From a virus (taxonomy: Duplodnaviria > Caudoviricetes): a stretch of DNA of 64,000 nt. The notes beneath the pieces were generated by a model that saw only the letters and a list, made by a program, of their open reading frames with translations, made no database searches and was not told the origin of the DNA. Of this stretch, positions 32,743 to 62,739 are shown piece after piece (the stretch's first letter is position 1; each line of letters begins with the position of its first letter). The DNA lies in the IMG/VR virus record IMGVR_UViG_3300025689_000001, positions 58,746-122,745 of that record, one strand, 5' to 3'. A program made the translations under genes and the position numbers.

Positions 32743-33116
32743 GCAGAGGGGTCCTGTTCTCGGAGATTTAGGGGTGTCTGTCCGGGAGGGGACATGTCGA
32801 AAAATTTGCTCCATGAAAATTTGAGAGCAGGGGGTGCGGCTGATTATACTTTTGGTATAATTCAATTCTATGATACCCCCCGTCAGCCGCCGAAATTATA
32901 CAGACTGTATACCGCCACAAGCCTGTGGAGTTCGTCAAGCTGCACAAAAAGCAAGAGTTTTCAACACTATTTTTTTACACTGGAACGGCGAAAAATTATT
33001 AAAAACCTATTGACATTTGCTGTATATTGTGCTATAATATAGATACAGTCAAGGGAACGGCTGAGACGTCAAGCGGTTCACGACTGATAATATTTATTGA
33101 ATGGAGCGTGTTTTTT

Positions 33117-33626
33117 ATGACATTTGCAAACAAAATGTATCTTTACAAGTATTTCAAAGCTGTGGGAGCGGACGTTGTGGCTCTAGGTTTCCCTCTTTGC
33201 GGTTCTCACGATGTAGCGGTTATTCTGCTTTCAAAGTCCGACTTCATCGCTATTTCAGACGGTTACTTTGAAAAGCTGTCACCTGCTTGTAAGGACTTTA
33301 TGCGTCACGTTATCAAGTCCAAAAAGACCGACAATCATTTCCGCTTTAGCTTTAAGGCTAAAGACCTGCAATTCCTTGCAATCAGTGAGGGCAATACAAA
33401 CCTTGAACCTGTTTGCTCCGCTGATAGGTTTGAAGAAATCAAGACCGAAAATGCGGAGTTCCTGCATCAGAAAAACGCTGGATATGCTCTTGAAAGAGTT
33501 GTCTATGAAATGTTCGGTAGGGAGTGGAGTTGGAAGCATAAGGGCTGTGACCTGCAAGGCGTGGAACTGAATGGTGAGACTGTGAACATTGAAATCAAGT
33601 GGTTCAACGGTCAGGCAAAGAAGTGA
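33117..33626 (+). CDS. Hypothetical protein
   Basis: Preceded by TTGACA...TATAAT (33010-33038) and a GGAG SD. Confidence 0.7.
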   Translation: MTFANKMYLYKYFKAVGADVVALGFPLCGSHDVAVILLSKSDFIAISDGYFEKLSPACKDFMRHVIKSKKTDNHFRFSFKAKDLQFLAISEGNTNLEPVCSADRFEEIKTENAEFLHQKNAGYALERVVYEMFGREWSWKHKGCDLQGVELNGETVNIEIKWFNGQAKK

Positions 33627-33709
33627 GACAAGAGGTCAAGCAAGAGCCGAAAGGCTCTTGCAAGACCAGATCGAATAAGCTAACTGAATTAACGAAAGGA
33701 TTTGATTTA

Positions 33710-33952
33710 ATGAAAAATTTAACAATGGTGGAACTTATGCTCATGTGCCTTACTCCGCAGTTAGAAGTTGATAATGCTTGTCAGTATGTCAAGGCAGTAT
33801 GTGAGATAGTAAACCGCACAGAACGTCTGACAAGAGAACAGCGGAATGTTATTAAGGGCTTTTTAGAAGAATGTCAGATGTGGCACAGCACAAAAGACAA
33901 GATGTGGCTTGAATCGGCAATAGACCATTTGAACACATATATAAACGCATAA
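33710..33952 (+). CDS. Hypothetical protein
   Basis: SD GAAAGGA; followed by a hairpin terminator. Confidence 0.65.
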   Translation: MKNLTMVELMLMCLTPQLEVDNACQYVKAVCEIVNRTERLTREQRNVIKGFLEECQMWHSTKDKMWLESAIDHLNTYINA

Positions 33953-34045
33953 AGGGAAGCGGTCGAAAGACCGCTTTCTCTTAACATTTTGTTCCCACAC
34001 CACACCAACAAGTAAATCAATTAACTTAAAGAAAGAGGTATCATT

Positions 34046-34588
34046 ATGAATATGGTTAAATTAAACAACAAGCTCACAGCACAGGTTATCAGCTTTACGG
34101 AGGTTATGCAGTCATATCAGGGAATAGAACAGGCAAACAGTTTTTACACATATCACAGAGAGAATGGAGCAGAAGTCCTTGATATTGACTTTAGACTAAA
34201 GGTCAATGACAATGGTCTGATAGTATCAATCAATAAGAGTTATGACAGAGACGCTATTTCAGGCGGTCACTACACAGAGGACACACAGACAGAAGTTGAT
34301 ATAAACGCCCTTGAAACGTGGTTAGAAGATAACGGTATATATAGCAAACAGGCTCACAGCATAGCAAACAGGCTTTTTAATACAGTTCTTTGTATTGCAA
34401 TGTGGGAAGCAATGGAAACTGAATTTTATACAGCACTTTACACTGAATATCAAAAATGTTCGTGTGAAACTGAAACGGCGGTTAAAATCTTACTTGAAAA
34501 GTTAACTGATTTTACAGACCGCTACTATGTGCAAAAAGTTTGGTTAGAAATTCAGAAAAATGAAGAAGGAATAAACAAACTTTTCTGA
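34046..34588 (+). CDS. Hypothetical protein
   Basis: SD AGAGG; followed by a hairpin terminator. Confidence 0.7.
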   Translation: MNMVKLNNKLTAQVISFTEVMQSYQGIEQANSFYTYHRENGAEVLDIDFRLKVNDNGLIVSINKSYDRDAISGGHYTEDTQTEVDINALETWLEDNGIYSKQAHSIANRLFNTVLCIAMWEAMETEFYTALYTEYQKCSCETETAVKILLEKLTDFTDRYYVQKVWLEIQKNEEGINKLF

Positions 34589-35280
34589 AAAATCGGGAAC
34601 GGGATTGATAAAAAATCCCGTTCCTTTTTGTTTAGTCATACCCCGAACGGTGAAAAGTTATGAACAAAATGTGAATAAAGTTTTTTCATTTTACCAAACA
34701 ATAACGGTGAAAAGTTGTGAACAAAATATGAACAAACATACCCCATTTCGTTCATAGTTTGTTCATAAATTCTCACCGTTATAACGGTGAAAAGTTGTTA
34801 CGAAATTATGAATAAGTTAAAACTTTTTCCACTTTCACACGCTAAAGTGCTAAACCCCTAAAGTGGTAAAGCGTTAAAGTGTACCCGCTTTAGCACGTTA
34901 AAGTGCTAAAATGTTTTTCCCACTTTACAGCGTTAAAGCGAGCTGTGACCTGCAAGCTGTGACCTGTTAGCCACCCCTAACCTGTAAATCTTTAGCTGAG
35001 TTTGCGACCTGCTCCGAGCTGCTCCTGCTCCGTTATTTTGAACAGTTCCACCTCATTTATTATAAATGTTTTTGTGGATTTTGCACAACAATATATTATT
35101 ATATATATCTATATATAAATGTATAATACCCGTTGTGCATATTGTATATAAATCTATTTGCAATTTCTATTTCTTTGTGTAATATGTAGAAAAATGTTAT
35201 TATGACTTGACAAACCCCTTTTGATGTGATATAATATATATAGTAAAGGGGATAAACCCCTAAAGAAAGGACTTGATTAA

Positions 35281-35421
35281 ATGAAAAAGGTTAAATGGTA
35301 TCGCTACACATTCGCAGACGGTTGTGTCTCTATTGTAAGAGGTTACAGCAGACACGAACTCTCTATTATGGAGCGTGACCACGGCAAACTCATTTCCAAA
35401 GTGTTCGAGGGGTGGGCATAA
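35281..35421 (+). CDS. Small hypothetical protein (46 aa)
   Basis: Promoter TTGACA...TATAAT, SD GAAAGGA, MKKVKWYRYTFADGC... Confidence 0.6.
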   Translation: MKKVKWYRYTFADGCVSIVRGYSRHELSIMERDHGKLISKVFEGWA

Positions 35422-35599
35422 TGGACGGCAGAAAATGGTTGGGGTGGTGGATAGTCACCACTCCACAGGGCAAAGAGTACGCAACGGAATACTATGAGGG
35501 CGACACATACGACGAGGCTTAGCCGATGCAGTCGCCACATTTGGAGAGGGAACGACAGTCAAAAGTGGGCCGCCGTTCGCAAGTATCAAGGGTGATTAA
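35421..35599 (+). pseudogene. Small gene with an apparent 1-nt frameshift near 35520
   Basis: MDGRKWLGWW...YDEA then TAG; adding one T gives ...EALADAVATFGEGTTVKSGPPFASIKGD-TAA ending at the terminator. Confidence 0.4.
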
Positions 35600-35862
35600 G
35601 TTCACCCTTTTTACTTATTCATATTTCGTTCACATATTCTTACCGTTATAACGGAAAAGAAATATGAACAGACTATGAACACTCATTCGTCAGGTTGCAC
35701 AATTTCGCCGCCAGATTGTTGATAATCTTTTACACTCATAGGTATTGACATTTATATTATATTGTGGTATAATGGTTATAGTAAAGGAAAGGGAAAGGAA
35801 CGTAAACACACCGTTGAAGCAGTTCGCCTTTACATTATATAATGAATAGGAGTTGTTTATTT

Positions 35863-36108
35863 ATGAACGCAATCACACAGGACATTCTTAATATCAAGGT
35901 GGAGAACATCAACTACGCACTCGGTCTTACTTCTAACAAGTATTTCATTCAGAAAGCATACGGCGGCTATCGTCTGTGCAAGACAACAAACAGTGCAGGC
36001 GGTTGTGCAGACATTACAGAGCGTATGACCAAAAAGGAACTTGCAAAAGTTCTTGACGGTATTTATAATACCATTCGTGCAAGTGGACTTATGGCAACAG
36101 AAAAATGA
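35863..36108 (+). CDS. Hypothetical protein
   Basis: Own promoter, SD and terminator. Confidence 0.7.
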   Translation: MNAITQDILNIKVENINYALGLTSNKYFIQKAYGGYRLCKTTNSAGGCADITERMTKKELAKVLDGIYNTIRASGLMATEK

Positions 36109-36428
36109 CATCTTCAAAACACACTTCATTATAAAGACGGACGGCGGCAATAGTCGCCGTCTGTCGTTTACATTTTGTTCATAATTTCTCACCGTTATAA
36201 CGGAAAAAACTTATTACGAAATTATGAACAAAGTGTTAAAAAAGTTTTTTTATTTTACAAATAAAAGTCTACCCACGTTTAGAAACTTTGCACAAATAAA
36301 AGTTACCGTGCCACAGGATTTTGTGCATTCATACAAAAATATTTCTACCCTATTGACAAATACCCATTATGTAGTATAATAATAGTATCAAAGGGATACA
36401 CTCCCCCAACTGAAAGGACTTGATTTTG

Positions 36429-36806
36429 ATGAAAGAATTAACCAATGGAAACACCGCACATATCAATGAGTACACAAAGCGACTTTGCCAAATTCAAACA
36501 GATATGCTTGCAAGGTTAGAGGAACTAAAGCCGATACACTCCAAACTTGAAAGACAGATACAAGAGGTTTTGCATTTACTTGAATTTGAAATGCTTAACG
36601 CGCCACAAAGAGCAAAGGCAGTCAAGCGGCTAACAGATTTAAGAAAAGAAAGACGTATTGTCAAACAGGAAATATATGATATAAATCAGGCACTTAAAAC
36701 ATTTACTTTTCACGCAGACAAACAGCCAAAATGGGAATATCAAATGCAGTACACATACAGCACCGATACAGTCAAGGCTATTTTCGGAGAGGATAACGGC
36801 GAGTAA
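36429..36806 (+). CDS. Hypothetical coiled-coil protein
   Basis: Own promoter, SD and terminator. Confidence 0.7.
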   Translation: MKELTNGNTAHINEYTKRLCQIQTDMLARLEELKPIHSKLERQIQEVLHLLEFEMLNAPQRAKAVKRLTDLRKERRIVKQEIYDINQALKTFTFHADKQPKWEYQMQYTYSTDTVKAIFGEDNGE

Positions 36807-37022
36807 TCGCCGTTTTCTCTTAACATTTTGTTCACATTTTCTCACCGTTATAACGGGAAAGAAATATGAACAGACTATGAACAGGCAGTTGTGCAGATTG
36901 CACATAAAAAGAATAAAATTGTTGAAAATGTTTTACTTGACTTTTGGCTTGAAATGTGGTATTATATATATAGAGGGAAAAAGAAATACAATCCCCCGAC
37001 TTATAGAATGGAGTGTAGAACA

Positions 37023-37190
37023 ATGAGAAGAAGATTAAACAAAAAGCATTTAGTGGAGTTCATCATCGGTGCAATGGGTTGGCTTTGCATTATATGGTTA
37101 GTAGCAAGTGTCATTGATACCGATTTACACAACACAACACCGAATCCGATTTATGCGGATTGGAATATATTTAATATCTTATTTAATTAA
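37023..37190 (+). CDS. Small membrane protein
   Basis: One hydrophobic segment (FIIGAMGWLCIIWLVASVI). Confidence 0.6.
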   Translation: MRRRLNKKHLVEFIIGAMGWLCIIWLVASVIDTDLHNTTPNPIYADWNIFNILFN

Positions 37191-37206
37191 AAGGAGTTGT
37201 TTTATT

Positions 37207-37359
37207 ATGGTAATGGTAAGAAACAGAAAAGGCACATACGGACTGACAAAGGACGAGTTCAGAAATTATATGCGTTCTTTATGGGAGAGGGCACAGGCAA
37301 GGAAAGCCGCCCGTGCTGATATGCAGGCAATGAGAGAGGAAGAAAAGAAAAAGAATTAA
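37207..37359 (+). CDS. Small basic hypothetical protein
   Basis: SD AAGGAG. Confidence 0.6.
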   Translation: MVMVRNRKGTYGLTKDEFRNYMRSLWERAQARKAARADMQAMREEEKKKN

Positions 37360-37565
37360 CCAAATGGGAGCGATTAAGTTCGCTCCCTTAACTTATTCAT
37401 ATTTCGTTCACATATTCTTACCGTTATAACGGTAGAAAATAGTTACAAGACTATGAATAAATTAAAATAAAAACTTTTCTGAAATGGGTTGACATTTTCC
37501 TTGAAATGTGGTACAATAATAGTAGGGAAAGAATACCCCGAATAAATTTTAAGGAGCGTGTTTTT

Positions 37566-37862
37566 ATGAACGCAAATATGACAATGGCTTTTGAAGTCGC
37601 AAATACTTTCATTGAGGATTTTACTATTGACAGTAGAATCACCACACAGAAAAGAGGTAGCACAGTTATTATTGATGTTATCGAAAACGAAAAGAATCAG
37701 CACATTTTCATCTATCTTATTCAGTATCTTTCCAAACTCGGTTTCAGATTCCATGAAATGAGCAACTGGGGTTTTGCAGAGGACGGCGACTATGTTTATA
37801 CCCTCGGTACACCAAACGGCATTGTGGTTGTGAGAATTGCAGATGCCACATTGTGGAACTAA
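37566..37862 (+). CDS. Hypothetical protein
   Basis: Own promoter, SD and terminator. Confidence 0.7.
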   Translation: MNANMTMAFEVANTFIEDFTIDSRITTQKRGSTVIIDVIENEKNQHIFIYLIQYLSKLGFRFHEMSNWGFAEDGDYVYTLGTPNGIVVVRIADATLWN

Positions 37863-38308
37863 GCAGTCATTTTAAGGGCGGAGAAATCCGCCCTTTGTTT
37901 TATTTATTAACTCGTTCATAATTCTGTAACAATTTTTCACCGTTATAACGGTAGAAAAATATGAACAGAATGTGAATAAGTTAAATGAAAATTTTCACAC
38001 AATTTTCACATTCCTATCACACGGCTATCACAATAGTATGGTATAATGCCCCCTGCAAAAGGAATGAACTTTAGGGGGCTAAAGCGTTGAATTAGTCCTC
38101 GGCGGAGCTATGTCCTGCGACCTGTGACCTGCGGCGGAGCTGTGGGCTATCTCTCCCAGCGGAGCTGTGAGCTGCAATGAGCTGTGCAATTTGCACAAAA
38201 GGAGCTGCGAAATGAGCTGAGTTTTCTACTTGACAAGAGCTGCATTTTGTGGTATAATATAATCAGAAAAGGGAAAGGAAAATCCCAAACACCAGAAAGG
38301 AATTGATT

Positions 38309-38824
38309 ATGGATAAAAGAGAATTTGAAGCGTGGATTGACAGCAGACTTGACAGCTTCGCTCAGGTACTTCCCGAAAAACGTAGACCGTGGGTAGATAT
38401 GAGCCTTAAACTTCAGGACAAGAAAAGTTATCTGCTCACTTATCTGAACGCATATATCGGCAACTTCTTCATTCACTGCGACCTCATCACAAGAGAGACA
38501 ACAATCTTCAATACCGCTTCAAAGCATTCGGCTATTGCGAAATGCCGTATGGGAGAAGTGTTCAGCGTTCGTGACGGCGTGGCTATTGCGTGGGCAAAAT
38601 ACAATCACGAGGTTGTGCCTGACTATTCACTTTCTATTTCGAGAGAGGAACTTGTAAACGGTGACAAGTTTATCAGTTCTATCAACAAGAATCACATTCT
38701 TGTTTTCATCGGTTGGATTCCCAATACAAGAAACGGTATGACAGGCAAGTGGGCGGTTGCTCTTGACGATAACCGCAGACCAATCAAAACACAAATCGCA
38801 AATGAAGTTGTCAAGGTAGAGTGA
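38309..38824 (+). CDS. Hypothetical protein
   Basis: Own promoter and SD; shares the AKC..(D/E).(F/Y)....G..IA motif with 40484-41155. Confidence 0.7.
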   Translation: MDKREFEAWIDSRLDSFAQVLPEKRRPWVDMSLKLQDKKSYLLTYLNAYIGNFFIHCDLITRETTIFNTASKHSAIAKCRMGEVFSVRDGVAIAWAKYNHEVVPDYSLSISREELVNGDKFISSINKNHILVFIGWIPNTRNGMTGKWAVALDDNRRPIKTQIANEVVKVE

Positions 38825-39000
38825 TAGTCGGGGCGGTTCGCCGCCCCACACTTTGTTCATAATTTCTTACCGTTATAACGGCAGATAAATATGAACAAGT
38901 TAAATGAAAAAATTTTTAGAAAACACTTGACAAATCATTTCTTTTGTGGTATAATATAATTACAGTAAAGGACAGAAGTCCAATGAAAGGAATTGATTTT

Positions 39001-39345
39001 ATGAATAATATTCACGGTTTTGTTTATGGTTACAAACTCACTTCTCAGGAATTTGAGAAACTCTATTGTGCGTGGTTAGAAGATGAACGAGATGAAGAAG
39101 TGCTTCTCAACTATGTGTGGGAGATTGATGATAACACCAAAATCGTATGTATGAACATTCTCATTATCAATGATGAAGAAGATAACAGCGTTCACTCTTT
39201 CAATGATATAAACAAAATCATTGCAGAGAAAAGAAGTGAGACAGACACATTCTTTGACTTGTTTACACCATTCTTCAATCAGTCACTTACCACTAACATC
39301 TTTAACACATTACCGCAAATCTTTTACATAAACGTATCACTGTAA
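39001..39345 (+). CDS. Hypothetical acidic protein
   Basis: Own promoter, SD and terminator. Confidence 0.7.
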   Translation: MNNIHGFVYGYKLTSQEFEKLYCAWLEDERDEEVLLNYVWEIDDNTKIVCMNILIINDEEDNSVHSFNDINKIIAEKRSETDTFFDLFTPFFNQSLTTNIFNTLPQIFYINVSL

Positions 39346-39564
39346 GCAACGGGCGGCGAAAGCCGCCTGCTCCTCATTAAAACTTTGTTCATAATTTCTT
39401 GCCGTTGTAACGGTAGAAAGTTGTTACAAAATTATTACGGCAACCCCAGTAAATGTTTTCGTCATTTTCACCAAAACTCACCCCACTTTGTTGAAAATGT
39501 TTTGCTTGACATTTACCCCTACTTGTGATATAATATAATTACAGAAAGGAAAGGTGATACCCCG

Positions 39565-39726
39565 ATGAAAGAGTTGAAAACTATGACCAAAAAGGAACGC
39601 AAGGCATATTACAGCCAGTTCCGCAACACTTGGTCTATCAACCCCCTTACTCGAAAGGAAAATAAGAATAAGTATAAGGAGCGTGTTTATCGTGAGAAAG
39701 AGAGATGTGACAGAGAGACGGTTTAA
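39565..39726 (+). CDS. Small basic hypothetical protein
   Basis: SD AAGGTGA after the promoter. Confidence 0.5.
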   Translation: MKELKTMTKKERKAYYSQFRNTWSINPLTRKENKNKYKERVYREKERCDRETV

Positions 39727-39877
39727 GTGTACTGAATGTAATGTGGTTATGACTGCATATAAATCCAGTGCAAGAAGAATGTCAGATGGACATATTAAGA
39801 CAATGTATTGTCCGTGGTGTAAGAAAGAAACTAACTTTGTGCAGTTTCGTTATGAGTTTCAGTTAGAAAGGAATTGA
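39692..39877 (+). CDS. Zn-ribbon protein resembling ribosomal protein bL33
   Basis: CTEC...KTMYCPWCKKETNF; size and Cys spacing as in Zn-binding bL33. Confidence 0.5.
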   Translation: MRKRDVTERRFKCTECNVVMTAYKSSARRMSDGHIKTMYCPWCKKETNFVQFRYEFQLERN

Positions 39878-39882
39878 TTGTT

Positions 39883-40146
39883 ATGTTATTTAAGAGGAAG
39901 TCAAAGGGAAAAGAAGTACAGACACAGGACGTTTTTGTTCATAAGTTTATTTTTTTTAATAGTGATGTAGTAGTCGCTATCGACAGCATTAAAGCAGTCA
40001 TTCGTGACAAAAATAAGATAGAGATTATATACAAAAGCAATGCAAAAATAACAAGTACGATTGTTTTTTATGATAAGGAAGAAAGTGCAATGGAGATAAT
40101 GAGACAGTTAGGATATAATTTAAATCTTGAAACAATAGTATTATAA
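39883..40146 (+). CDS. Hypothetical protein
   Basis: SD GAAAGGA; terminator follows. Confidence 0.65.
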   Translation: MLFKRKSKGKEVQTQDVFVHKFIFFNSDVVVAIDSIKAVIRDKNKIEIIYKSNAKITSTIVFYDKEESAMEIMRQLGYNLNLETIVL

Positions 40147-40483
40147 GAAAATGGGCGGTTCGCCGCCCGTTCATATTTTGTTCATAATTTCTTATTGTTA
40201 TAACGGAGAATAAAAATGAACAGAATGTGAATAAATTAAATGAAAAAATTTTTGAAAACTCCTTGACAAATTCAAATTGTTGTGGTATAATAATATCAGA
40301 GTTAAGGCAACGGACTTAACCGCCACACAAAAGGGCAGAGAAAATTAAATGAAAAAATTTTTGAAAACCCCTTGACAAAATCAAAAAAGTGTGGTATAAT
40401 AAAGGTACAGTAAGGGAAACCCCTACTGAATAAATCAAAACAGTGACGAGTACAACACTTAAAAACCGGAAAGGAATACTACT

Positions 40484-41155
40484 ATGATGAACGCAAAGGA
40501 AATCGCTATGAACGCAATCGCAAAGGCAAAGGCTGACTGGGTAAAGGCTATGACTGAGGACTTCTACGCTGACGAGAAGAAGAACCCTCTCAACATCGGC
40601 GCTATCGGTGTGGGCAACACTATCATCGTGGCATACGCTGACAGCGTGGACGAGCCGCTTATCGGTGTTGCAAAGTGCAATCCGACTGACCGCTATGACC
40701 GTGAAATCGGTATCGCAATCGCATACGCAAGGGCAATCGGCGAGGATATTCCCGACTATGTTCTTGACAGCACTATCTCTCTCGGTGAGGACGAGGACGA
40801 CTGGGACGATGATGACGACTGGGACGATGATGACGACTGGGACGATGACGAGGACGACAGCGATGACGAGGACGACAGCGATGACTGGGACAGCGATGAC
40901 GATGATGACGACTGGGACGATGACGATGACGACTATGACGAGGATTATGTCGAATTCGGTGAAATCGATATTGGTGGTAAGTTCGTCTACGTCGGCGACC
41001 TCTATATCAAGGTGAGCGATAGCGAGGCATACCGCTATGAGGACCAGATGACATGCGTCCTTGGCGAGGCTGGACATGGGCCTTTTAAGAAAGTCGCAAA
41101 ACGCAACGCAAGGCAAGACAAGAGGTCAAGAAAGGATGATAATTATGACAGATAA
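40484..41155 (+). CDS. Hypothetical protein with a long Asp-rich (DDDDDW) repeat tract
   Basis: Tandem 18-nt units (GACGACTGGGACGATGAT) at ~40790-40945. Confidence 0.75.
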   Translation: MMNAKEIAMNAIAKAKADWVKAMTEDFYADEKKNPLNIGAIGVGNTIIVAYADSVDEPLIGVAKCNPTDRYDREIGIAIAYARAIGEDIPDYVLDSTISLGEDEDDWDDDDDWDDDDDWDDDEDDSDDEDDSDDWDSDDDDDDWDDDDDDYDEDYVEFGEIDIGGKFVYVGDLYIKVSDSEAYRYEDQMTCVLGEAGHGPFKKVAKRNARQDKRSRKDDNYDR

Positions 41156-41531
41156 GGAAATTAAACAGCGTTTAAGAGAAATCGAAACACGCAAAGTTCA
41201 TCAGTGTGCAATGGCACTGAAAGCAAAAGGACTTTTCACAAGTGAGGAACTCACTCAGACACTCAGAGAATACGGCGTTGCTCGAGCATACTTTGAACAG
41301 CTTTACCACCTTGAATGGTGCTATGAGTGGATAAAAGAGGGAGAAATGACTTTTGAGGAGTTTATAAGAGACTTCATTTTCAGAACTAATGGCGACAGAA
41401 TTTTCCGTGACAGCATTGATTCAGACAAATATGTAAACAAATACAGACTTAACGGCAATAAGGTTGAACACTATGAACAGTGGTACAGATACCGCATTGC
41501 TTTTCAGAAAAAAGAATTTCTTAACATCTAA
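41145..41531 (+). CDS. Hypothetical protein
   Basis: SD GAAAGGA. Confidence 0.7.
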   Translation: MTDKEIKQRLREIETRKVHQCAMALKAKGLFTSEELTQTLREYGVARAYFEQLYHLEWCYEWIKEGEMTFEEFIRDFIFRTNGDRIFRDSIDSDKYVNKYRLNGNKVEHYEQWYRYRIAFQKKEFLNI

Positions 41532-41807
41532 AATGAATGGGCGGTTCGCCGCCCGTTCACACTTTTGTAACTATTTTCTACCGTTATAACGGAGAAAACT
41601 TATTACAAACTTTCAACACTTTCAACAACCGCCTGCTCCGTCATTATGCACAAATTCAATCCCTATTCTTTGTGCAATATTTTTCTCGAAAAGGTATTGA
41701 CAAAAAAGAAAAGATGTGATATAATATAGGTACAGTAGGGGAAACGGAAACCCTACTGAATACAATCAATGAGAGCCGAACTCACCAAACGGAGAATGGA
41801 GTTAATT

Positions 41808-42200
41808 ATGACTACAAAAGAAATGCTCAATGCCGTTATCAATGGCGAAATCACAGACGAAGTCAAGGCAAAAGCAACTGAAATGCTCGCCGCCGCAGAG
41901 AAGAAGAACACAAAGAGAGCCGAAGCAACCGCAGAAAACCGCTCCGCAAATGCCGCACTCGCCGCTGAAATCGTGGCAGTTATGGCTGACGGTACGGAGT
42001 ATTCCGCCGCTGAACTGCTCCCCCTCATCTCCGCCGCTCACTCCGAAATCACAAAGAACAAAATCGCTTCCGTTATGGCAGTAGCCAAAGAGGACGGACT
42101 TGTCGAAATCAATCCCGAATACAAAGAGGGCGGCAAAGGCAGAAAGAAGAATGGTTACAAGAAGCTCACGGCGGCAACAGAGGAAGTCGAAACAGAGTAA
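41808..42200 (+). CDS. Hypothetical protein, family A (possible winged-helix)
   Basis: Paralogue of 44656-45048 and 59517-59882 (MTTKEML...GGKGRK..GY). Confidence 0.75.
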   Translation: MTTKEMLNAVINGEITDEVKAKATEMLAAAEKKNTKRAEATAENRSANAALAAEIVAVMADGTEYSAAELLPLISAAHSEITKNKIASVMAVAKEDGLVEINPEYKEGGKGRKKNGYKKLTAATEEVETE

Positions 42201-42409
42201 GCCTATGGGAGCGGTAGAAATACCGCTCCACTCCCCTGTTCATTTTTTGTTCATAATTTCTCACCGTTATAACGGACGATAAATGTTACGAAATTGTGAA
42301 CAAAGTATGAATAAGTTAAAAGAAAAAATTTTCAAAAACCCCTTGACAAACTTCAAAAGATGTGGTATAATATAATTGTTCCAAAGGGAACAGAAAGGAA
42401 TGATTACTT

Positions 42410-43477
42410 ATGGCAGAACATTTTATGACTGGTATTTCAAAAGAGGGAAGTGTTATTCTCATTACTCTGAATGACCGCCCTAACCCTATCAAGTATAACT
42501 GCAATACTGGTGAACTCACTTCATTCACTGGTAGAGCAGTAAAGCACTTTCCGCAGTCCTGTACTATCGATGATGTAAACGAGGGTGAACGGTGGGCAAT
42601 CAATACCGTTCGTGAACGTATTAAGTGCGGTATGACTTGCGAATTTCGCAAACTTGAATTGTTTATCGCAGTCCTTGACCTTGTTCGCAATCCGTACAGT
42701 CTTCCTAGTGAGTGTCCTCAGGGATATATCAAGTGGGTGCGTGACAACGGCAAAGACATTTCCGTTGATACCCTCGGCGAATTTCGCATTGAACAGAACA
42801 TCAACAAATTATCCAAAGAGGATAAAGAGGTCTATGAAAAACTCCGCACCGCTTTCAGTTTTAACGACAGACTGATTGAATGGTGGGTAAAGGAAGAAAA
42901 CACCGTTCTCCGTCAGAAATTCCGTCAGATGTTTAAGGCAACAATCAAGTGCTTCACTTGGAATATGTATGATGATTTATACACTTGGTATAGATTTTTC
43001 ATCGGCACCAACAGCGGTCGGCGTGTATGGGGTGACAACTGGGTTGAAAATCTTGACGGCAACAGAGATTTCCGCTATAATGTGAACACTTGCGAACAGC
43101 AGAGGGATAAAGTCAGAAATGACAAAATCCTTGCTAATGAAGAAAAAATCCGCAGTATCACGGAAATTGAGAGCAATGACTTTGTTATCATTGTACCGTC
43201 AGAAATGGACGATTTCACCAAAGAGGGGCAAATGCAGAATAACTGTGTAGGCTCACACTATCACGACAGCATTGCCGCAGGCGACAACCTCATTTACTTT
43301 ATCCGCAAAAAGGCAAGTCCAAACCATTCATATATTACAAACCGTTATAGCACTTGTTGTGGTAGAACAGTCGAAACAAGAATGATTAACAACAGAGACA
43401 ACACCGACAACAAAGCACTTGCATTGATTGAAATTATTGACAAGAAAATCACCGAATTGCTCAAAGCAAAGGAATAA
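42410..43477 (+). CDS. PcfJ-like domain protein, family B
   Basis: C-terminal IVP....F.KEGQMQNNCVG.HY.......IYFIRK; paralogue of 45287-46426. Confidence 0.7.
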   Translation: MAEHFMTGISKEGSVILITLNDRPNPIKYNCNTGELTSFTGRAVKHFPQSCTIDDVNEGERWAINTVRERIKCGMTCEFRKLELFIAVLDLVRNPYSLPSECPQGYIKWVRDNGKDISVDTLGEFRIEQNINKLSKEDKEVYEKLRTAFSFNDRLIEWWVKEENTVLRQKFRQMFKATIKCFTWNMYDDLYTWYRFFIGTNSGRRVWGDNWVENLDGNRDFRYNVNTCEQQRDKVRNDKILANEEKIRSITEIESNDFVIIVPSEMDDFTKEGQMQNNCVGSHYHDSIAAGDNLIYFIRKKASPNHSYITNRYSTCCGRTVETRMINNRDNTDNKALALIEIIDKKITELLKAKE

Positions 43478-43674
43478 AAATGACTGGCGGTCAGAAATGA
43501 CCGCCACATTTTGTTCACAATTTGTTCACATTTATTCACCGTTATAACGGACGATATTCATTACAGAATTGTGAATTTGTTAAAAGAAAAAATTTTCAAA
43601 AAGGTATTGACAAAATGACAAAGTTGTGGTATAATATAGGTGTACCGTAGAGGTACGGAAAGGAATGATGTGCA

Positions 43675-44430
43675 TTGTATAAAATTAAAAATCTTTTCGG
43701 TAGTGTTGCAAGCCTTATGACTTCAAAGCGTGAAAAAATTATCGTGCTTGACGTTGAGGGTTATTCAACTTGCCGTCCGTATAATGTTGGTTACATAGTC
43801 GCTGACTTATATGGAAATGTTTACCGTAAGCGTTCATTCGCTCTGCTCCCTTGTATATGGGAAAATATCGTTTCAATGGTCAATTCTCGCTCCGCTGAGG
43901 AAATGACAAAAAAGAACGTAGAGGAAATTTTGAGGGATATTGAACTCCCTAAACACAAAAGAAAATATCAGCCTATATCCCCCGAAAAATTCGCTGACAT
44001 TTTCACCGCTGACGTTCAAAATTTTAAGGTCAAAAGACTTTTCGCTTATAACGTCAATTTCGATAAAGGTAGTATAAAGCGACTTTTAGGCATTGAAAAG
44101 TTTATGGCTCTCAATCTTGAATACTGCGATATTATCAGCGGTATCGTTTACACAAGACTTTTAACAAAACAGTATGTTGAATTTTGCAAGGCTCACGACT
44201 TTATCACGGAAAAAGGAAACGTAATGACAAAAGCGGAAATCGTGATAAAATATTTAACTGGAAATCTCGACTATGAAGAAGAACATACTGGACTTGCTGA
44301 CGTAATGGACGAATACTTAATTCTTTTAACTGCTCTATCTGCTCACAAAAAAATTGACTGGAAACCGTGCGTAGCGTGGAGATTGTTAAAAAATTTTGCA
44401 GAGGAAAAAGGTATCGCTTTAACGGGGTAA
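43675..44430 (+). CDS. DEDDh 3'-5' exonuclease, family C
   Basis: VLDVEG, AYNVNFD, EEHTGLADV. Confidence 0.8.
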   Translation: MYKIKNLFGSVASLMTSKREKIIVLDVEGYSTCRPYNVGYIVADLYGNVYRKRSFALLPCIWENIVSMVNSRSAEEMTKKNVEEILRDIELPKHKRKYQPISPEKFADIFTADVQNFKVKRLFAYNVNFDKGSIKRLLGIEKFMALNLEYCDIISGIVYTRLLTKQYVEFCKAHDFITEKGNVMTKAEIVIKYLTGNLDYEEEHTGLADVMDEYLILLTALSAHKKIDWKPCVAWRLLKNFAEEKGIALTG

Positions 44431-44655
44431 AGTGAGGCGGCGAAAGCCGCTTCACATTTTGTTCACAATTATCCCCCGTTATAACGGAAGAAACTTATTA
44501 CAAAACTATGAATAAATTAAATGAAAAAATTTTTGAAAACCCCTTGACAAATTCAAATTGTTGTGGTATAATATAGGTACAGTAAAGGTAAGGAACACCG
44601 ATACTGAATAATGAATAGGTCAAGGACAGACCGAAAAACCAGAAAGGAAAATACT

Positions 44656-45048
44656 ATGACTACAAAGGAAATGCTTACTTCTGTTATCAACGGCACTATC
44701 AATGACGAGGTTAAGGCAAAGGCAAGGGAAATGCTTGCAAGTGCCGAGAAGAAGAACGGCAAGCGTGCTGAACAATCCGCTGAAAATCGCTCCGCTAACC
44801 TTGCTATCGCCGAGGTTATCAAGTCCAAGATGAAGAAGAACGTCACCTACGCCGCAAGTGAGATTGTCACTCTCATTGCCGCTGAGTACCCCGACATTAA
44901 GACCGCCAAGATTACTCCTGTTATGGCTGTCGGTATTGAAGAGGGTATGTTCACAAAGGTCGATGATTACAAGGTCGGCGGTAAGGGCAGAAAGGTCAAC
45001 GGCTACACAGCAGTTGTCGCCGAGGACACCGAGAACACCGAGAATTAA
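44656..45048 (+). CDS. Hypothetical protein, family A
   Basis: Paralogue of 41808-42200. Confidence 0.75.
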   Translation: MTTKEMLTSVINGTINDEVKAKAREMLASAEKKNGKRAEQSAENRSANLAIAEVIKSKMKKNVTYAASEIVTLIAAEYPDIKTAKITPVMAVGIEEGMFTKVDDYKVGGKGRKVNGYTAVVAEDTENTEN

Positions 45049-45286
45049 ACCCACTGGGGCAGTAGGAATACTGCCCCAAACTTATTCATATTTTGTTCAC
45101 AAATTCTTTCCGTTATAACGGTAGATAAATGTTACGAAAATGTGAACGAATTGTGAATTAGTTAAATGAAAAAATTTTCAAAAAGGTATTGACGAATCGT
45201 TTCAGATATGGTATAATAACAATGTAGTCAAGAGGACTACACAATAAAGTCACGAAAGACTTAAAAACGGAAAGGAATTGATTGCT

Positions 45287-46426
45287 ATGTCAAGAGTTTT
45301 TAACATCACTGGAATTGAGAAGAACGGTCTTATTGTTACCGTAACTATCGAGGGCAAGGCTAATCCTGTCATTTTCGATATGGCACACCTCAGCTTCACT
45401 TCATACACTGGTAGAGATATTCAGCGTTTCCCTGTCGGCTCTTATTGTCTGTCTGAGGACGGCTTTTCGGGTATTATCCCGAAACTTCTTTTCAACGCTT
45501 TACTGTCTGGCAGTAAGGGCGATGTAAGAAGCAATCTCAGCAAGTTAGAGCTTTTCATCAACAACCCCGAAATTCTCGGCACTATTCGCGATTGTAGTGA
45601 ACTTGCTGACGAGTGCCCGAAAGGTTTTATCAAGTGGCTGAAAGATAATAACAAAATGCCGACAAAAGAAAATCTCACCGACTATAAAAGGGGAATGGCA
45701 TTAAAGAGAATGACACAAGAAGATAAAGAAGTTTATGAACTTCTTTTCGTAGGTGAAAATTCTCCCTACTCTCAGCTTGATAGAGTTTGGTATAACGACA
45801 CTTACAAAGAGTGCTATTTCTCAATGAGTGCCGAACTCCGTCACAAATTCAACAAAATTCTGAAAGTATCTATCAAAGCACTTTCGTGGCAACTGAAAGA
45901 CGAAATGACAACTTTTATTGATAGATTTATCAGAAATATAGGTTGGAGCAGTTGGCTTGACGAGTGGCGTGACGAGTGGCGTCGCCCCGATAACTGGGAA
46001 GAACTGTTAAACACTAACAGAACTTTCAAGTGGAATACTGAAAACATTATTGCTAATGCAAGAAAAGAAATGGAAAACAAAATCATTAAAAATGAAAACA
46101 AAATCCGTGCTATCGAGGAACTTTCAAATGACACTTTTGTTGTTGTCGTTCCGAAAACTTTACAGGACTTTACAGACGAGGGCAATATGCAACATAATTG
46201 TGTAGGACATTTCTATCACAGCAGTATTGCAAACGGCGAAAATCTTGTTTACTTTATCCGCAAAAAGTCAACTCCTGATCGTTCATACATCACAAACAGA
46301 TATATGATAATGAGACACGAAACTGTTGAAACGAGAAAGTTTGCTAATGCTTACAATGACGATGATGAAGCAAAGGCATTGATTAAAGAAATTGACAAAA
46401 TGATTACATCTCTCCTTTCGGAGTAA
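45287..46426 (+). CDS. PcfJ-like domain protein, family B
   Basis: DEGNMQHNCVGHFY...VYFIRK. Confidence 0.7.
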   Translation: MSRVFNITGIEKNGLIVTVTIEGKANPVIFDMAHLSFTSYTGRDIQRFPVGSYCLSEDGFSGIIPKLLFNALLSGSKGDVRSNLSKLELFINNPEILGTIRDCSELADECPKGFIKWLKDNNKMPTKENLTDYKRGMALKRMTQEDKEVYELLFVGENSPYSQLDRVWYNDTYKECYFSMSAELRHKFNKILKVSIKALSWQLKDEMTTFIDRFIRNIGWSSWLDEWRDEWRRPDNWEELLNTNRTFKWNTENIIANARKEMENKIIKNENKIRAIEELSNDTFVVVVPKTLQDFTDEGNMQHNCVGHFYHSSIANGENLVYFIRKKSTPDRSYITNRYMIMRHETVETRKFANAYNDDDEAKALIKEIDKMITSLLSE

Positions 46427-46624
46427 TCATATCGGGGCGGTAGGAATACCGCCCCACCTTTCGTTCATAATTTGTTCACATTTATTTACCGTTATAACGG
46501 ATAAAAATAGTTACAAGACTATGAATAAGTTAAATGAAAAAATTTTCAAAAACCCCTTGACAAACCGCAGAGAATATGTTATAATAAGGCATACTCTAAA
46601 GAGAGTATAGAAAGGAATGATACT

Positions 46625-47068
46625 ATGTACGATTTCAATGAATGCAAAAAGGGATCAAACCCCACAAAAGACAAAGCAAGGGAAATTCTCTTGTCAGACC
46701 TGGAAGAATTTCTCACTGAAAAGTACGGAGCGGAGCAGAGCTCACAAGTGGACGGAAATATGTACGCTGTTTGCTTGGGTACTCGCACACTCGCAGACGG
46801 AACAGACGGAGAAGTTTGTTGTACCATTGAAGTGGTAGCAAAGGAGTTTGATGTTCGTGTGGCGGAGAGGTCCGGCAAAGTCTTTCGGCCCTATGAGAGA
46901 ATAAGAGAAGAAGAAGAATACACTCGCAAGGTGGAGCAGTCAAAGGCAAAGGCAGAGGAGAACAAACGCAAAAAGGAAGAGAAAGCCGCAAAGGACAAGA
47001 AAGCAAGAGAGGAGAGAGCAAAGGCAAAAGCCGGAAAGAGACAAGAAATTCTCGGAGATGAAACATAA
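46625..47068 (+). CDS. Hypothetical protein, family D
   Basis: Paralogue of 58948-59370 (L.EKYG, DGE....V..KEF, charged tail). Confidence 0.7.
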   Translation: MYDFNECKKGSNPTKDKAREILLSDLEEFLTEKYGAEQSSQVDGNMYAVCLGTRTLADGTDGEVCCTIEVVAKEFDVRVAERSGKVFRPYERIREEEEYTRKVEQSKAKAEENKRKKEEKAAKDKKAREERAKAKAGKRQEILGDET

Positions 47069-47297
47069 TTAACAAAAGGGAACGGACTGAACATCCGTTC
47101 CCCTCATTTATTTTTCGTTCACAATTTCTTTCCGTTATAACGGTACAAAAATATTACAGAACTATGAACAAAGTGTGAATTGATTAAATGAAAAAATTTT
47201 CTCAAACCCCTTGACAAAATCCGCAAAGTGTGTTATAATAATAATGTCATAAGGAACAGACTAAACTAACCCCTTATACAGAAAGGAATATAATATA

Positions 47298-47975
47298 ATG
47301 GTAACAATCAACGGAAAGTTAATCCGCAGAAAGTTATTTCTGATTGTCGATACAGAGACTTTCAACGGATTCGACGAGCCTATTGTCTATGACATTGGCT
47401 TCGCAGTCATTGACAGGACAGGACAGGTATACGCAAAGTATAGTTTTGTTGTCCATGACACATTCATCGGTATGGCAGAACAGGCGGCGACTGCCTATTA
47501 TGCAAACAAGTTTCCGCAGTATCACGCAGATTTACGGGCAGGTCGGCGCAGACTTGCTACATGGGCGCAGATTATACAGATTGTAAATGCCTTGCTTGAA
47601 AAGTGGGACATTTCAGATGTAGTCGCCCATAATGCAAACTTCGATTGTAGGTCTACAAACCATACAAGCCGACTGCTTCACTACAATTCATTTTTCAAAC
47701 GTCACGTTGAATGGTGGGACACTCTGCAAATGGCGGCTGACACTATCTGCAAACAGAAAACATATATCCGCTTCTGTCAAGAAAATGGTTATATGACACG
47801 CAATAGAGTTCCCAGACCGCAGATGAAAGCAGAGGTCATTTACAGGTACATTACAGGCAATAACACTTTCATCGAAAGTCATACAGGTTTAGAGGACTGT
47901 ATGATAGAGAAAGAAATTTTCGCAAAGTGTTGCCGACAGCATAAGAAAATGAGACACACATTCTATGTGTTCTAA
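47298..47975 (+). CDS. DEDDh 3'-5' exonuclease, family C
   Basis: IVDTET, AHNANFD, ESHTGLED. Confidence 0.85.
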   Translation: MVTINGKLIRRKLFLIVDTETFNGFDEPIVYDIGFAVIDRTGQVYAKYSFVVHDTFIGMAEQAATAYYANKFPQYHADLRAGRRRLATWAQIIQIVNALLEKWDISDVVAHNANFDCRSTNHTSRLLHYNSFFKRHVEWWDTLQMAADTICKQKTYIRFCQENGYMTRNRVPRPQMKAEVIYRYITGNNTFIESHTGLEDCMIEKEIFAKCCRQHKKMRHTFYVF

Positions 47976-48199
47976 ATCCGAGCGGTGAGGTAGGAATACT
48001 TCACCGCTTTTTTGTGCTAAAGTAAGTTAAATGTGTTGACTTGTTCATATTCTTGTAACAAATTTCTACCGTTATAACGGCGAAAATTTATGAACAAAGT
48101 GTGAACATTCCTACTATTCCGATAGGTTTAGTAGGATTACCGTTCCGCCCCTCGTCGTCCTTCCTTCTCCCCTCCCCTACGTCATGCATCGACGTATTC

Positions 48200-48395
48200 T
48201 CGGTGGAAGTTCAAATGAGCTGCAATGAGCTGCATCGACGCGTAAAGGAGCTGCACTTGTAGGAGCTGCGTCGCCACGAATTTTGGAGCTGCGTCGCAAG
48301 GAGCTGCAAATGAGCTGCATTTTCCCCTGTTTTTCCAGCGCAGCGACGTAAAATTGCACAAAAATAGCCCATTTCTGCGCAAATGAGCTGCAAAA
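48200..48395. repeat. GAGCTGC direct-repeat cluster
   Basis: About 8 copies of (AT/AG)GAGCTGC; related clusters at 34939-35030 and 38105-38243. Confidence 0.75.
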
Positions 48396-62585: not shown

Positions 62586-62660
62586 TGGTTACCACAGCCT
62601 CGAGTCGAACGGGCATCGTCGGGGTTAGAATCCGAAGTTCTACCATTAAACTATGTGGTA
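62586..62660 (-). tRNA. Amber suppressor tRNA (CUA), Gln-like
   Basis: TCGGA-TTCTAAC-CCCGA; U1-A72 acceptor TACCACA/TGTGGTA; CCA. Confidence 0.85.
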
Positions 62661-62663
62661 ATA

Positions 62664-62739
62664 TGGTTACGAGGGCGTGGCCATGATCCCGCACTCTCCG
62701 GGTTAGAGCCGGAGGTTCTACCAATTAAACTACCTCGTA
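62664..62739 (-). tRNA. Amber suppressor tRNA (CUA), Gln-like, atypical T loop
   Basis: TCCGG-CTCTAAC-CCGGA; acceptor TACGAGG/CCTCGTA; CCA. Confidence 0.8.

Follow-up and report, generated by a model that had tools for sequence, protein, structure and literature searches.

A 64-bp mirror-symmetric element bounds sixteen small early transcription units in an uncultured phage: a possible operator array and place of cassette exchange

In T4-type phages, promoter-early stem-loops (PeSLs) have been described as mobile regulatory cassettes (Arbiol et al. 2010, PMC2839356; Comeau et al. 2014, PMC4122927). PeSL mini-circles have been demonstrated experimentally (PMC2839356, PMC4122927). The palindrome-bounded array described here is from an uncultured phage of ~180 kb. 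Like the PeSLs, the array repeats an intergenic module in which a terminator stem-loop is combined with a strong early promoter of host type and A/T-rich DNA upstream of it, and these modules cluster within a plastic region of small ORFan genes. In both systems, indels and replacements between close relatives join in the repeated module, apparently by homologous recombination and with no dedicated recombinase. In this respect, cassette exchange in the array matches that of the PeSLs. However, the phage lineages are unrelated, the array element has no sequence homology to PeSLs, and the array possesses in addition, between terminator and promoter, an element of 64 bp with two-fold symmetry, an invariant palindrome and phased boxes. 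Most crossovers in the array fall in this element and not in the promoter.

The stoperators of Cluster A mycobacteriophages are 13-bp asymmetric sites within transcribed regions, bound by the immunity repressor of the temperate phage. Like these and other multi-copy phage operators, the array carries many copies of one short site over a gene block, thought or known to be the target of one phage regulator with global control of transcription; its sites, however, have a symmetric, composite build and a place between terminator and promoter, and no repressor gene is known for them. The host-takeover module of the Bacillus phage SPO1 is likewise a series of many short operons with small early genes, in which every operon has its own terminator, a strong ribosome-binding site and a strong promoter of the sigma-A type. 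Early genes of SPO1 are shut off by proteins acting on RNA polymerase, plus TF1, and we know of no repeated palindromic element described between its operons; in contrast, genes of the HU/TF1 family were not found in our phage and four relatives. KorB of IncP plasmids is a ParB-family protein that coordinates many operons through about a dozen copies of a perfect palindrome (OB) at variable distance from the promoters. The OB operators lack flanking phased boxes, which the array sites possess, and no ParB_N gene was found in our phage and four relatives. Integrons (IntI, attI, attC) share with the array a linear series of small-gene cassettes, imperfect inverted repeats between them, N+1 sites per N cassettes, and a cassette content that varies among relatives. 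Nevertheless, no integrase was found for the array, its cassettes bring their own promoters and terminators, and its site has neither folding covariation nor a single insertion point or fixed crossover position.

The window analysed here is a stretch of 64,000 nucleotides from a 122,745-base phage record (IMGVR_UViG_3300025689_000001; G000 below). The early-gene array in this window consists of 16 small transcription units, each bounded by the 64-bp element (Table 1). The search for the core CCGTTATAACGG, with up to one mismatch allowed, returned sixteen of the seventeen sites, compared with a mean of 0.09 matches in shuffled sequence, and none of 100 shuffles reached sixteen. The core of site 8 reads CCGTTGTAACGG, and the remaining copy, site 9, has a degenerate core (TTGTTATAACGG) between normal arms. 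All sites are located within 34.7-48.1 kb of the window. Each unit shows the same order: a stop codon and a GC hairpin, then the left GTTCAYA boxes, the core, the right TRTGAAC/TGTTAC boxes, an A/T-rich UP-like tract, TTGACA-17-TGnTATAAT, a Shine-Dalgarno sequence and one to three genes. Fourteen plus-strand promoters of the array match the consensus in 12 of 12 positions. The preliminary description had reported units of promoter, Shine-Dalgarno sequence, one to three small genes and GC hairpin, the 16 cassettes between 17 sites, core-to-core distances of 519-1386 bp and two orphan right half-sites ahead of the first site, all of which our analysis confirmed. The half-sites consist of AACGGTGAAAAG plus TRTGAAC boxes. 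It had also noted that no gene follows the last copy, where a promoter is absent too, and that no copy lies outside the array, which holds across the whole record. The orphan half-sites are conserved in G028.

Table 1. Features of the array and of the operon upstream of it (positions in the window; core positions are starts unless a range is given)
Feature	Position	Strand	Details
Upstream operon without full site	33010..34625	+	promoter 33010; genes 33117-33626 (169 aa), 33710-33952 (80 aa), 34046-34588 (180 aa); terminator 34595-34625
Two orphan right half-sites	34640..34740	+	half core AACGG + TRTGAAC boxes, at 34646 and 34703
Site 1	34750..34813	.	core 34776-34787
Cassette 1	34814..35616	+	419-bp leader with iteron-like repeats; promoter 35207; genes 35281-35421 (46 aa), 35421-35522 (33 aa); hairpin
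Site 2	35617..35680	.	core 35643
Cassette 2	35681..36165	+	promoter 35745; gene 35863-36108 (81 aa); terminator 36136-36165
Site 3	36166..36229	.	core 36192
Cassette 3	36230..36818	+	promoter 36353; gene 36429-36806 (125 aa)
Site 4	36819..36882	.	core 36845
Cassette 4	36883..37394	+	weaker promoter 36937 (10/12, with TG); genes 37023-37190 (55 aa), 37207-37359 (50 aa)
Site 5	37395..37458	.	core 37421
Cassette 5	37459..37913	+	promoter 37489; gene 37566-37862 (98 aa); terminator 37874-37895
Site 6	37914..37977	.	core 37940
Cassette 6	37978..38843	+	278-bp leader with GAGCTGC/GTGACCTG repeats; promoter 38230; gene 38309-38824 (171 aa)
Site 7	38844..38907	.	core 38870
Cassette 7	38908..39375	+	promoter 38927; gene 38983-39345 (120 aa)
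Site 8	39376..39439	.	core 39402
Cassette 8	39440..40168	+	promoter 39506; genes 39565-39726 (53 aa), 39692-39877 (61 aa, weak zinc-ribbon matches), 39883-40146 (87 aa)
Site 9	40169..40232	.	degenerate core 40195
Cassette 9	40233..41554	+	tandem promoters 40263, 40372; genes 40484-41155 (223 aa), 41145-41531 (128 aa)
Site 10	41555..41618	.	core 41581
Cassette 10	41619..42237	+	promoter 41697; gene 41808-42200 (130 aa), paralogue of cassette 13
Site 11	42238..42301	.	core 42264
Cassette 11	42302..43512	+	promoter 42343; gene 42410-43477 (355 aa, PcfJ-like C-terminus)
Site 12	43513..43576	.	core 43539
Cassette 12	43577..44449	+	promoter 43607; gene 43675-44430 (251 aa, phrog_20187)
Site 13	44450..44513	.	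core 44476
Cassette 13	44514..45083	+	promoter 44544; gene 44656-45048 (130 aa)
Site 14	45084..45147	.	core 45110
Cassette 14	45148..46462	+	promoter 45189; gene 45287-46426 (379 aa, PcfJ-like)
Site 15	46463..46526	.	core 46489
Cassette 15	46527..47105	+	promoter 46557; gene 46625-47068 (147 aa)
Site 16	47106..47169	.	core 47132
Cassette 16	47170..48042	+	promoter 47211; gene 47298-47975 (225 aa, phrog_20187); terminator 47980-48009
Site 17	48043..48106	.	core 48069; array end

The element of ~64 bp comprises a 12-bp palindrome and, on each side, one to three T(C/A)AYA-type boxes at 11-bp pitch. Among 307 distinct copies, collected from the window and 45 metagenome arrays, the core is invariant, as are T-13/A-11 and the mirrored T+22/A+24. 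Positions that mirror each other in the two arms are complementary in 16.9 of 32 cases, compared with 16.3 of 32 predicted from column frequencies, and their mutual information is near zero. In the absence of arm-to-arm covariation, the symmetry reflects two arms that each fit the box consensus, the pattern that a protein on duplex DNA would be expected to give, and the site is not folded like an attC. Rfam shows no known RNA element at the site. Left boxes overlap the T-rich tail of the terminator, the right arm adjoins the UP-like tract, and iteron-like repeats of other kinds flank the array. Arrays of this type contain about 70-100 boxes over 13-21 kb.

A strong promoter was found behind the site in 273 of 283 distinct related cassettes, and the distance from core to -35 peaks at 45, 56, 67 and 78 bp, that is, in 11-bp steps. 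These steps follow the number of right-arm boxes and could thus result from box duplication rather than from selection on helical phase. The distance to the -35 hexamer had been described as widely variable, which does not hold as a rule: nine of the sixteen units in the window have 45, 56 or 67 bp, and longer distances, up to 429 bp, are the minority of the 283 cassettes.

Relatives with other sites (G002, G004, G008, G010 and G013) were found through the capsid protein. The lineage as a whole consists of TAG-recoded phages of about 160-186 kb from Clostridia bins. G002 and G004 possess the core GGCCCGGGCC with GTTAGT/ACTAAC and CTTTAAAG boxes, G008 the core GCCCGGGC with TGGAAA/TGGTAA boxes at 11-bp pitch, and G013 the core GCGCCCGGGCGC with TTGCACAA boxes; the site of G010 reads TTATTCAYAA-N13-15-TTRTGAATAA. 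That the symmetric design is kept while core and boxes are replaced argues for selection on recognition. G003 has the same core as the window phage, and carries four orphan left half-sites where the window phage has right half-sites. Two further phage contigs of 182-184 kb possess 28 and 27 exact cores, all inside one array of 20-21 kb, and no exact core was detected elsewhere in their bins.

Comparison of 45 related metagenome arrays revealed gain, loss and replacement of whole cassettes, in agreement with the earlier proposal that the sites are cassette boundaries. The 325 cassettes belong to 87 families, their order is largely colinear, and whole-cassette indels occur at all positions. In ten of the thirteen well-fitted events the crossover interval lies within ~30 bp of the core, versus one of thirteen in the similarly repeated UP/promoter tract. 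The intervals vary by event (-52..-43, -27..-25, -21..-4, -8..12, 13..30, 21..23 and 60..65) and share no fixed point. Comparison of the parental junctions showed that most crossovers lie in or beside a short exact identity run common to both, and the run containing the core is usually the longest of these (12-24 bp). Since this holds in most events, homology alone suffices for the clustering. The crossover data support whole-unit gain and loss through what is probably ordinary recombination at the repeated element rather than through an integron-type enzyme.

The locus had been proposed to be an integron-like acquisition system for putative early anti-host genes. In such a system, a dedicated site-specific recombinase would excise and insert cassettes, exchanging strands within the palindromic core. 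The N+1 sites for N cassettes, with a terminal site without gene, the crossovers near the core and the statistical independence of left and right arms are consistent with this. Nonetheless, the proposal is largely refuted and highly improbable: tyrosine or serine recombinases (Phage_integrase and Resolvase domains) were detected neither in G000, G003 and the complete relatives G004, G008 and G013 nor on G028:C65 and G029:C38, the phage contigs that carry the same site; indels at every position do not point to one entry site, promoters and terminators are present in each cassette, the crossover point is not fixed, and the arms do not covary, hence no folded attC-like substrate. The same recombinase searches gave positives on bacterial contigs of bins G028 and G029. 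Exchange between co-infecting relatives, or recombination-dependent replication, could instead be stimulated by breaks, if a phage endonuclease or nickase cut the palindrome. Perfectly conserved 12-bp palindromes are typical of dimeric nuclease targets, and the concentration of crossovers near the core would fit. The candidate is the 169-aa protein of the upstream operon, whose first two genes have full-length homologues, among five relatives compared, only in G003 with its identical core. The protein belongs to a narrow family, with 16 clusters in a set of 1.84 billion representative proteins, in which N120, G122, E126, G143, E159, K161, G165 and Q166 are invariant and D145 nearly so, a pattern of E...D...ExK. 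However, the protein has no Pfam or PHROG match, and searches of PDB and BFVD with its confident AlphaFold2 model (pLDDT 90.8) gave nothing significant (best VIA Z, 2.7; HhaI endonuclease, only Z 2.3). The hhalign comparison with a PD-(D/E)XK protein of a sister phage gave 0.1% probability, relatives with GCCCGGGC-type sites lack any gene at the corresponding position, and homology already accounts for the clustering; we therefore regard a nuclease hot spot as unlikely.

The best reading, to which we give a probability of about 0.5, is an operator array that coordinates early promoters and doubles as a recombination substrate. The site looks like a double-stranded protein-binding element, given its two-fold symmetry, invariant positions, 11-bp boxes and 11-bp steps to -35, and most likely is a docking site for a regulator. 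A protein-binding array, mentioned earlier as the alternative, fits better than an integron, also in view of the lineage-specific cores and boxes. Anatomy, symmetry and conservation of the sites, their phasing to the promoter and the cassette indels are observed, and binding of a protein, with repression or activation as its effect, is inferred. Most likely all sites would be occupied at once by a DNA-binding protein, dimeric or of higher order and phage- or host-encoded, which would place the strong early promoters of the entire block, all of host type, under joint control. Most plausibly the protein would switch these promoters off once the early phase is over, either by covering the UP/-35 region or by bridging neighbouring sites. 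The terminator-site-promoter module, being repeated 17-28 times, would also be a preferred place for short-homology recombination between related phages, so that relatives gain, lose and replace cassettes there. The sole clear multi-HTH protein (26707-27426 in G000) has an unchanged first recognition helix in G004, whose site differs, which speaks against it as the binder. Presence/absence profiles gave no DNA-binding candidate. The runs compared with the window all consisted of assembled contigs.

The promoterless last site, the orphan half-sites at the array edge, and the promoters more than 110 bp from the core in ~15% of related cassettes count against an operator function. The former two, together with the confinement of sites to one block flanked by other iteron-like repeats, would suit a loaded protein that organises, anchors, protects or imports the region in a centromere- or entry-like manner, with promoter proximity incidental. 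We consider this rather unlikely: a search of our phage and four relatives for ParB_N family genes was negative, most cassettes keep a fixed, stepwise spacing from the site to the UP element and -35, which points to a link with transcription, and promoter-adjacent placement recurs in relatives with other site sequences. Quite improbable is that no dedicated factor exists. The element would then be mere conserved filler within a terminator-promoter module that has been duplicated, made up of the T-rich tail of the terminator and bent A/T DNA ahead of the promoter, and gene conversion would keep its copies uniform. The overlap of left boxes with terminator tails and the contact of the right arm with the UP-like tract agree with it, and frequent recombination among copies could homogenise them. 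However, neither termination nor UP function needs a perfect palindrome with mirrored invariant positions in 307 copies, the symmetric design is retained in relatives despite new cores and boxes, and the Rfam result gives no support.

Proteins of several cassettes in the array are related to each other. The protein of cassette 13 shares 57% identity with that of cassette 10, the two PcfJ-like proteins of cassettes 14 and 11 share 38.5%, and those of cassettes 16 and 12, both phrog_20187, share 26%.

The array is real and strikingly regular, and the description that suits it best is a PeSL-like series of terminator-operator-promoter modules, after the promoter-early stem-loop (PeSL) regulatory cassettes of T4-type phages. 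The 12-bp core of the site, CCGTTATAACGG, is present in 16 copies with up to one mismatch, against 0.09 expected. A 17th copy reads TTGTTATAACGG between normal arms, and no further copies of the core were found outside the array in the whole record. All intervals share the same order: the stop codon is followed by a GC hairpin, the left boxes, the core and the right boxes, then by an A/T-rich tract (GTTAAATGAAAAAATTTTC), the promoter TTGACA-17-TGnTATAAT, a strong Shine-Dalgarno sequence and between one and three genes. The sites, cassettes and layout of the preliminary description are therefore correct. Each of the 16 cassettes possesses its own sigma-70-like promoter and its own GC hairpin. 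The promoters score 11-12 out of 12 in 15 cassettes and 10 out of 12, with TG, in the remaining one. The final site has no promoter, and two right half-sites are located ahead of the first site. At the equivalent place in the relative G003 (L061, about 350-700, reverse strand), four successive orphan left half-sites, GTAACC-N5-GTAACC-N7-CCGTTA, precede the first full site, compared with the two orphan right ones of the window.

The distance between the site and the next promoter, previously described as widely variable, is mostly fixed, with 45, 56 or 67 bp from the core to the -35 hexamer in 9 of the 16 units. A strong promoter follows the site in 273 of 283 distinct related cassettes, and the distance peaks at 45, 56, 67 and 78 bp, steps which correspond to one, two, three and four right-arm boxes. 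The UP-like tract is found at a fixed distance after the last right-arm box. In a minority of related cassettes the leader is 90-430 bp long and carries other repeats.

Positions of the features in the window and its surroundings
Feature	Position	Remark
Structural (late) genes	1-32.7 kb	- strand; numerous in-frame TAGs
239-aa HTH protein gene	G000 26707-27426	L177:6707-7426
Early array block	33.0-48.0 kb	+ strand; frames open under standard code
169-aa protein gene	33117-33626	first gene of operon
Operon just upstream of array	33117-34588
Boxes and AT-rich tandem repeat	34800-35130	cassette 1 leader
GCTGTGACCTG, two copies	34940-35030	cassette 1 leader
Second repeat family, three copies and variants	38100-38243	cassette 6 long leader
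17th core copy	40195	TTGTTATAACGG
Duplicated promoter module	40263-40400	cassette 9
Duplicated three-cassette block	41581-48069
Second repeat family, eight copies	48217-48391	within 175 bp
Two adjacent tRNA genes	62586-62739	~62.6 kb; anticodon CTA

A metagenome scan for the site detected 70 loci, 45 of them with at least three sites, and the latter together with the window provided 307 distinct copies of the site. In all of them the core is invariant, as are T-13, A-11 and the mirrored T+22 and A+24. On each side, proximal and distal boxes of the T(C/A)AYA form follow an 11-bp pitch, with T/A-rich spacers. Mirrored arm positions were complementary at 16.9 of 32 positions (306 distinct copies), compared with 16.3 expected from independent column frequencies, and arm-to-arm mutual information is approximately zero. 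GTTCAYA is the variant favoured in the left arm and TGTTAC that in the right arm; since the arms prefer different variants without co-variation, each is held separately to its consensus. Judging from these alignments, such shaping would be expected of a symmetric protein on double-stranded DNA, and the site is most likely a putative duplex protein-binding element. A hairpin or cruciform was rejected, as the arms do not co-vary, and an Rfam search of 32.0-49.5 kb returned nothing. Like an operator, the site is a symmetric, conserved, recognition-type sequence near promoters.

The search of IMG/VR with the site pattern gave only two single, chance-like matches, and relatives were therefore sought through the capsid protein, of which IMG/VR contains 52 relatives, their contigs reaching up to 186 kb. 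The arrays of the relatives are found at the same position in the genome, with the late block on one side and the tRNA region on the other. In G002 and G004, GGCCCGGGCC is present in 15-17 copies; boxes of the GTTAGT-N5-ACTAAC or CTTTAAAG type flank them, and a promoter like that of the window comes next. G008 has a GCCCGGGC core between mirrored TGGAAA/TGGTAA boxes at an 11-bp pitch, G013 a GCGCCCGGGCGC core with TTGCACAA boxes, and G010 the form TTATTCAYAA-N13-15-TTRTGAATAA without a fixed core. The contig of G003, which breaks just within the array, shares the core CCGTTATAACGG with the window, but its half-sites contain GTAACC boxes. Thus, cores and boxes vary independently between lineages and the architecture is kept, which suggests recognition by one or more factors whose specificity may change.

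Forty-six arrays were cut from site to site, giving 325 cassettes with cargo in 87 families. The arrays are mostly colinear, with few true order changes (families 9/47 and 23), and the presence or absence of whole cassettes varies at all array positions. The family order is 15-6-16-7-22-5-10-4-3-1-11-8-1-24-2-12 in the window and 15-6-16-13-7-9-22-5-10-4-14-32-3-1-11 in close relatives. Exact cores number 27 and 28 in two whole sister genomes, compared with 15 here (17 sites in all). For 36 indel events, the short-form junction was aligned against both long-form junctions and the switch point was located. In 10 of the 13 cleanly fitted events the switch lies within ~30 bp of the core. The other three lie in the terminator, in the promoter tract and further upstream, one each. 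Crossover intervals differ among events, and most fall within or next to a stretch of exact identity common to both parental junctions, the longest stretch usually being the one that contains the core (12-24 bp). The G002/G004 pair agrees with this, its homology blocks beginning 1-3 bp ahead of the GGCCCGGGCC cores. In the runs with the phage, which consist of assembled contigs, the assemblies end at the sites; the joints seen there, which bear on excised mini-circles of the PeSL type, are unreliable because their flanks are shorter than 30-60 bases. The crossover pattern is the one left by short-homology recombination between repeats dispersed along the genome, known from PeSLs (PMC2839356, PMC4122927), and not that of strand exchange at a single fixed point. 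The turnover of cassettes is accounted for by recombination at the repeats.

An integron-like system, as first proposed for this array, would likewise move whole cassettes. Integrons possess an adjacent tyrosine recombinase (IntI), attC sites whose active form is a folded single strand, cassettes that lack promoters and are transcribed from a shared one, and entry at attI with a fixed crossover. Here no such recombinase was found, the sites lack an arm pairing signal, each cassette has its own promoter, and indels occur at all positions with differing crossovers, and an integron analogue is thereby largely ruled out. The profiles PF00589 (Phage_integrase) and PF00239 (Resolvase), representing the tyrosine and serine recombinases whose search had been suggested, could not detect a match in this phage (G000), in four relatives (G003, G004, G008 and G013) or in the two sister contigs with the same site (G028:C65 and G029:C38); bacterial contigs in the G028 and G029 bins did match both profiles in the same searches. 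A Pfam screen of 70 ORFs in the 57 kb of G028 absent from G000 revealed no recombinase or regulator among the 25 families listed of 38. On present evidence, the array does not represent a novel type of recombination machinery. Similar to PeSLs, it repeats an early sigma-70-like promoter, an A/T-rich upstream tract and a terminator stem-loop between small genes, and the joints of indels and replacements between close relatives fall in the repeated module. PeSLs are elements of T4-type myoviruses, whereas the array belongs to another group of phages, and a megablast search with it in 50,697 phage records gave no match; it is an analogue of PeSLs and not a homologue. The new part with respect to PeSLs is the symmetric, lineage-specific, phased element.

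The role of this element is most likely the coordinated control of early promoters by a putative protein. Domain searches, presence/absence profiles and HTH comparison found no site-binding candidate in this phage and its relatives. Presence/absence profiles of same-core and other-core phages (six genomes) revealed no DNA-binding candidate, and the genes found only in same-core phages are enzymes, not regulators. The HU family is absent from G000 and four relatives. ParB/parS or KorB/OB systems need a ParB_N protein, and the PF02195 (ParB_N) profile had no match in G000, G004, G008, G010 and G013. Hijacking of a host operator was rejected, as the two bins with whole phage genomes contained the core nowhere but on the phage contig; single matches to a longer site pattern in other genomes are mostly chance-like. 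The one clear multi-HTH protein was also considered as the site reader. It is 78% identical to its counterpart in G004 and was rejected because its first recognition helix is the same in G004, whose site differs. This 239-aa protein combines two HTH motifs in tandem with a conserved C-terminal domain. Its gene is flanked by AAA_24 and helicase-like genes, and the protein is conserved throughout the phage group; it may be a replication organiser or a late regulator.

A further reading places the core as the target of a small new-fold phage nuclease or nickase, the 169-aa product of the gene at the array head, with cassettes exchanged through breaks and without a recombinase. Of five relatives compared, the same-core G003 alone has a full-length homologue of the operon just upstream of the array. 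The 169-aa family is very narrow (16 clusters in 1.84 billion representatives), and its invariant pattern, N-x-G-Y-A-x-E ... G-x-D ... E-x-K-x-x-G-Q, recalls restriction-type nucleases. Assignment as a PD-(D/E)XK nuclease, for which the sequence pattern is the sole support, was not retained. The protein matched no family in Pfam and PHROG and no PDB sequence, hhalign of the family against a PDDEXK_5 protein was negative, and an Atlas search gave restriction-enzyme leads at 0.80, below threshold. Two AlphaFold2 models reached pLDDT 77 and 91 (best 90.8, pTM 0.85), and neither had a match with Foldseek, VIA or BFVD. Because the confident model matches nothing in PDB or BFVD, the nuclease idea is a lead only, and for the same reason the modelled fold may be undescribed. 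We consider this reading improbable. If true, the array would be a phage counterpart of the integron, in which lineage cores (CCGTTATAACGG and GCCCGGGC) set which phages trade early genes.

Large uncultured phages have blocks of small early genes, often assumed to serve host takeover or counter-defence. To our knowledge, little is known about the regulation and fast turnover of such blocks. As a PeSL-like array, the present one marks each early transcription unit with one recognisable DNA element, and the design recurs with other sequences across the TAG-recoded group. It therefore offers a handle for finding sets of early genes in metagenomes, a bait with which the regulator timing the early phase could be isolated, and a natural record of gene-by-gene exchange driven by short repeats. 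The PeSL idea is widened beyond T4-type phages, with an operator-like component added.

The source record in IMG/VR has 122,745 bases, with an estimated completeness of 75%. Reading TAG as a sense codon makes ORFs much longer, the longest increasing from 1,130 to 2,653 aa. The sequence was present in runs from digester/sludge and bovine gut metagenomes, and the TAG-recoded phages sharing the array design come from rumen, gut and digester samples. A sister phage of 182,624 bases, with ~90-94% nucleotide identity over most aligned blocks, was found in a Ruminococcus MAG bin, and a second one of 184,272 bases in a Candidatus Fimenecus bin. These whole genomes are single contigs, which shows that the bins so labelled are contaminated with phage DNA. 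The bin labels give a weak hint of Oscillospirales as hosts.

Most cassette products could not be assigned to a family. Cassettes 11 and 14 encode PcfJ-like products, with which a search for related loci found nothing, and cassettes 12 and 16 encode phrog_20187, weakly similar to polymerase exonuclease subunits. One further product has weak, sub-threshold zinc-ribbon matches. The pairs 10/13, 11/14 and 12/16 are paralogous (57%, 38.5% and 26% identity) and thus mark an old duplication of a three-cassette block. Both copies were seen in relatives with the family order 1-11-19-2-8 / 1-24-2-12, the first holding extra cassettes (families 19 and 2).

In cassette 9, the UP/-35/-10 promoter module is present in two near-identical copies, 109 bp apart. 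The leader of cassette 1, 419 bp long, contains CTAAAGTG/CACTTTA boxes, similar to the left-arm boxes of GGCCCGGGCC-type relatives, as well as a tandem repeat rich in A and T, and the G003 contig ends in the counterpart of this repeat. A second repeat family, [A/G]GAGCTGC[A/G], is located immediately right of the last site. It is also found in the leader of cassette 6, together with GAGCTGT/GTGACCTG variants, and one copy there falls within the promoter spacer; GCTGTGACCTG is present twice in the leader of cassette 1. Present at equivalent places in G003 and G028, these repeats look iteron-like and may point to an origin or to a second regulator.
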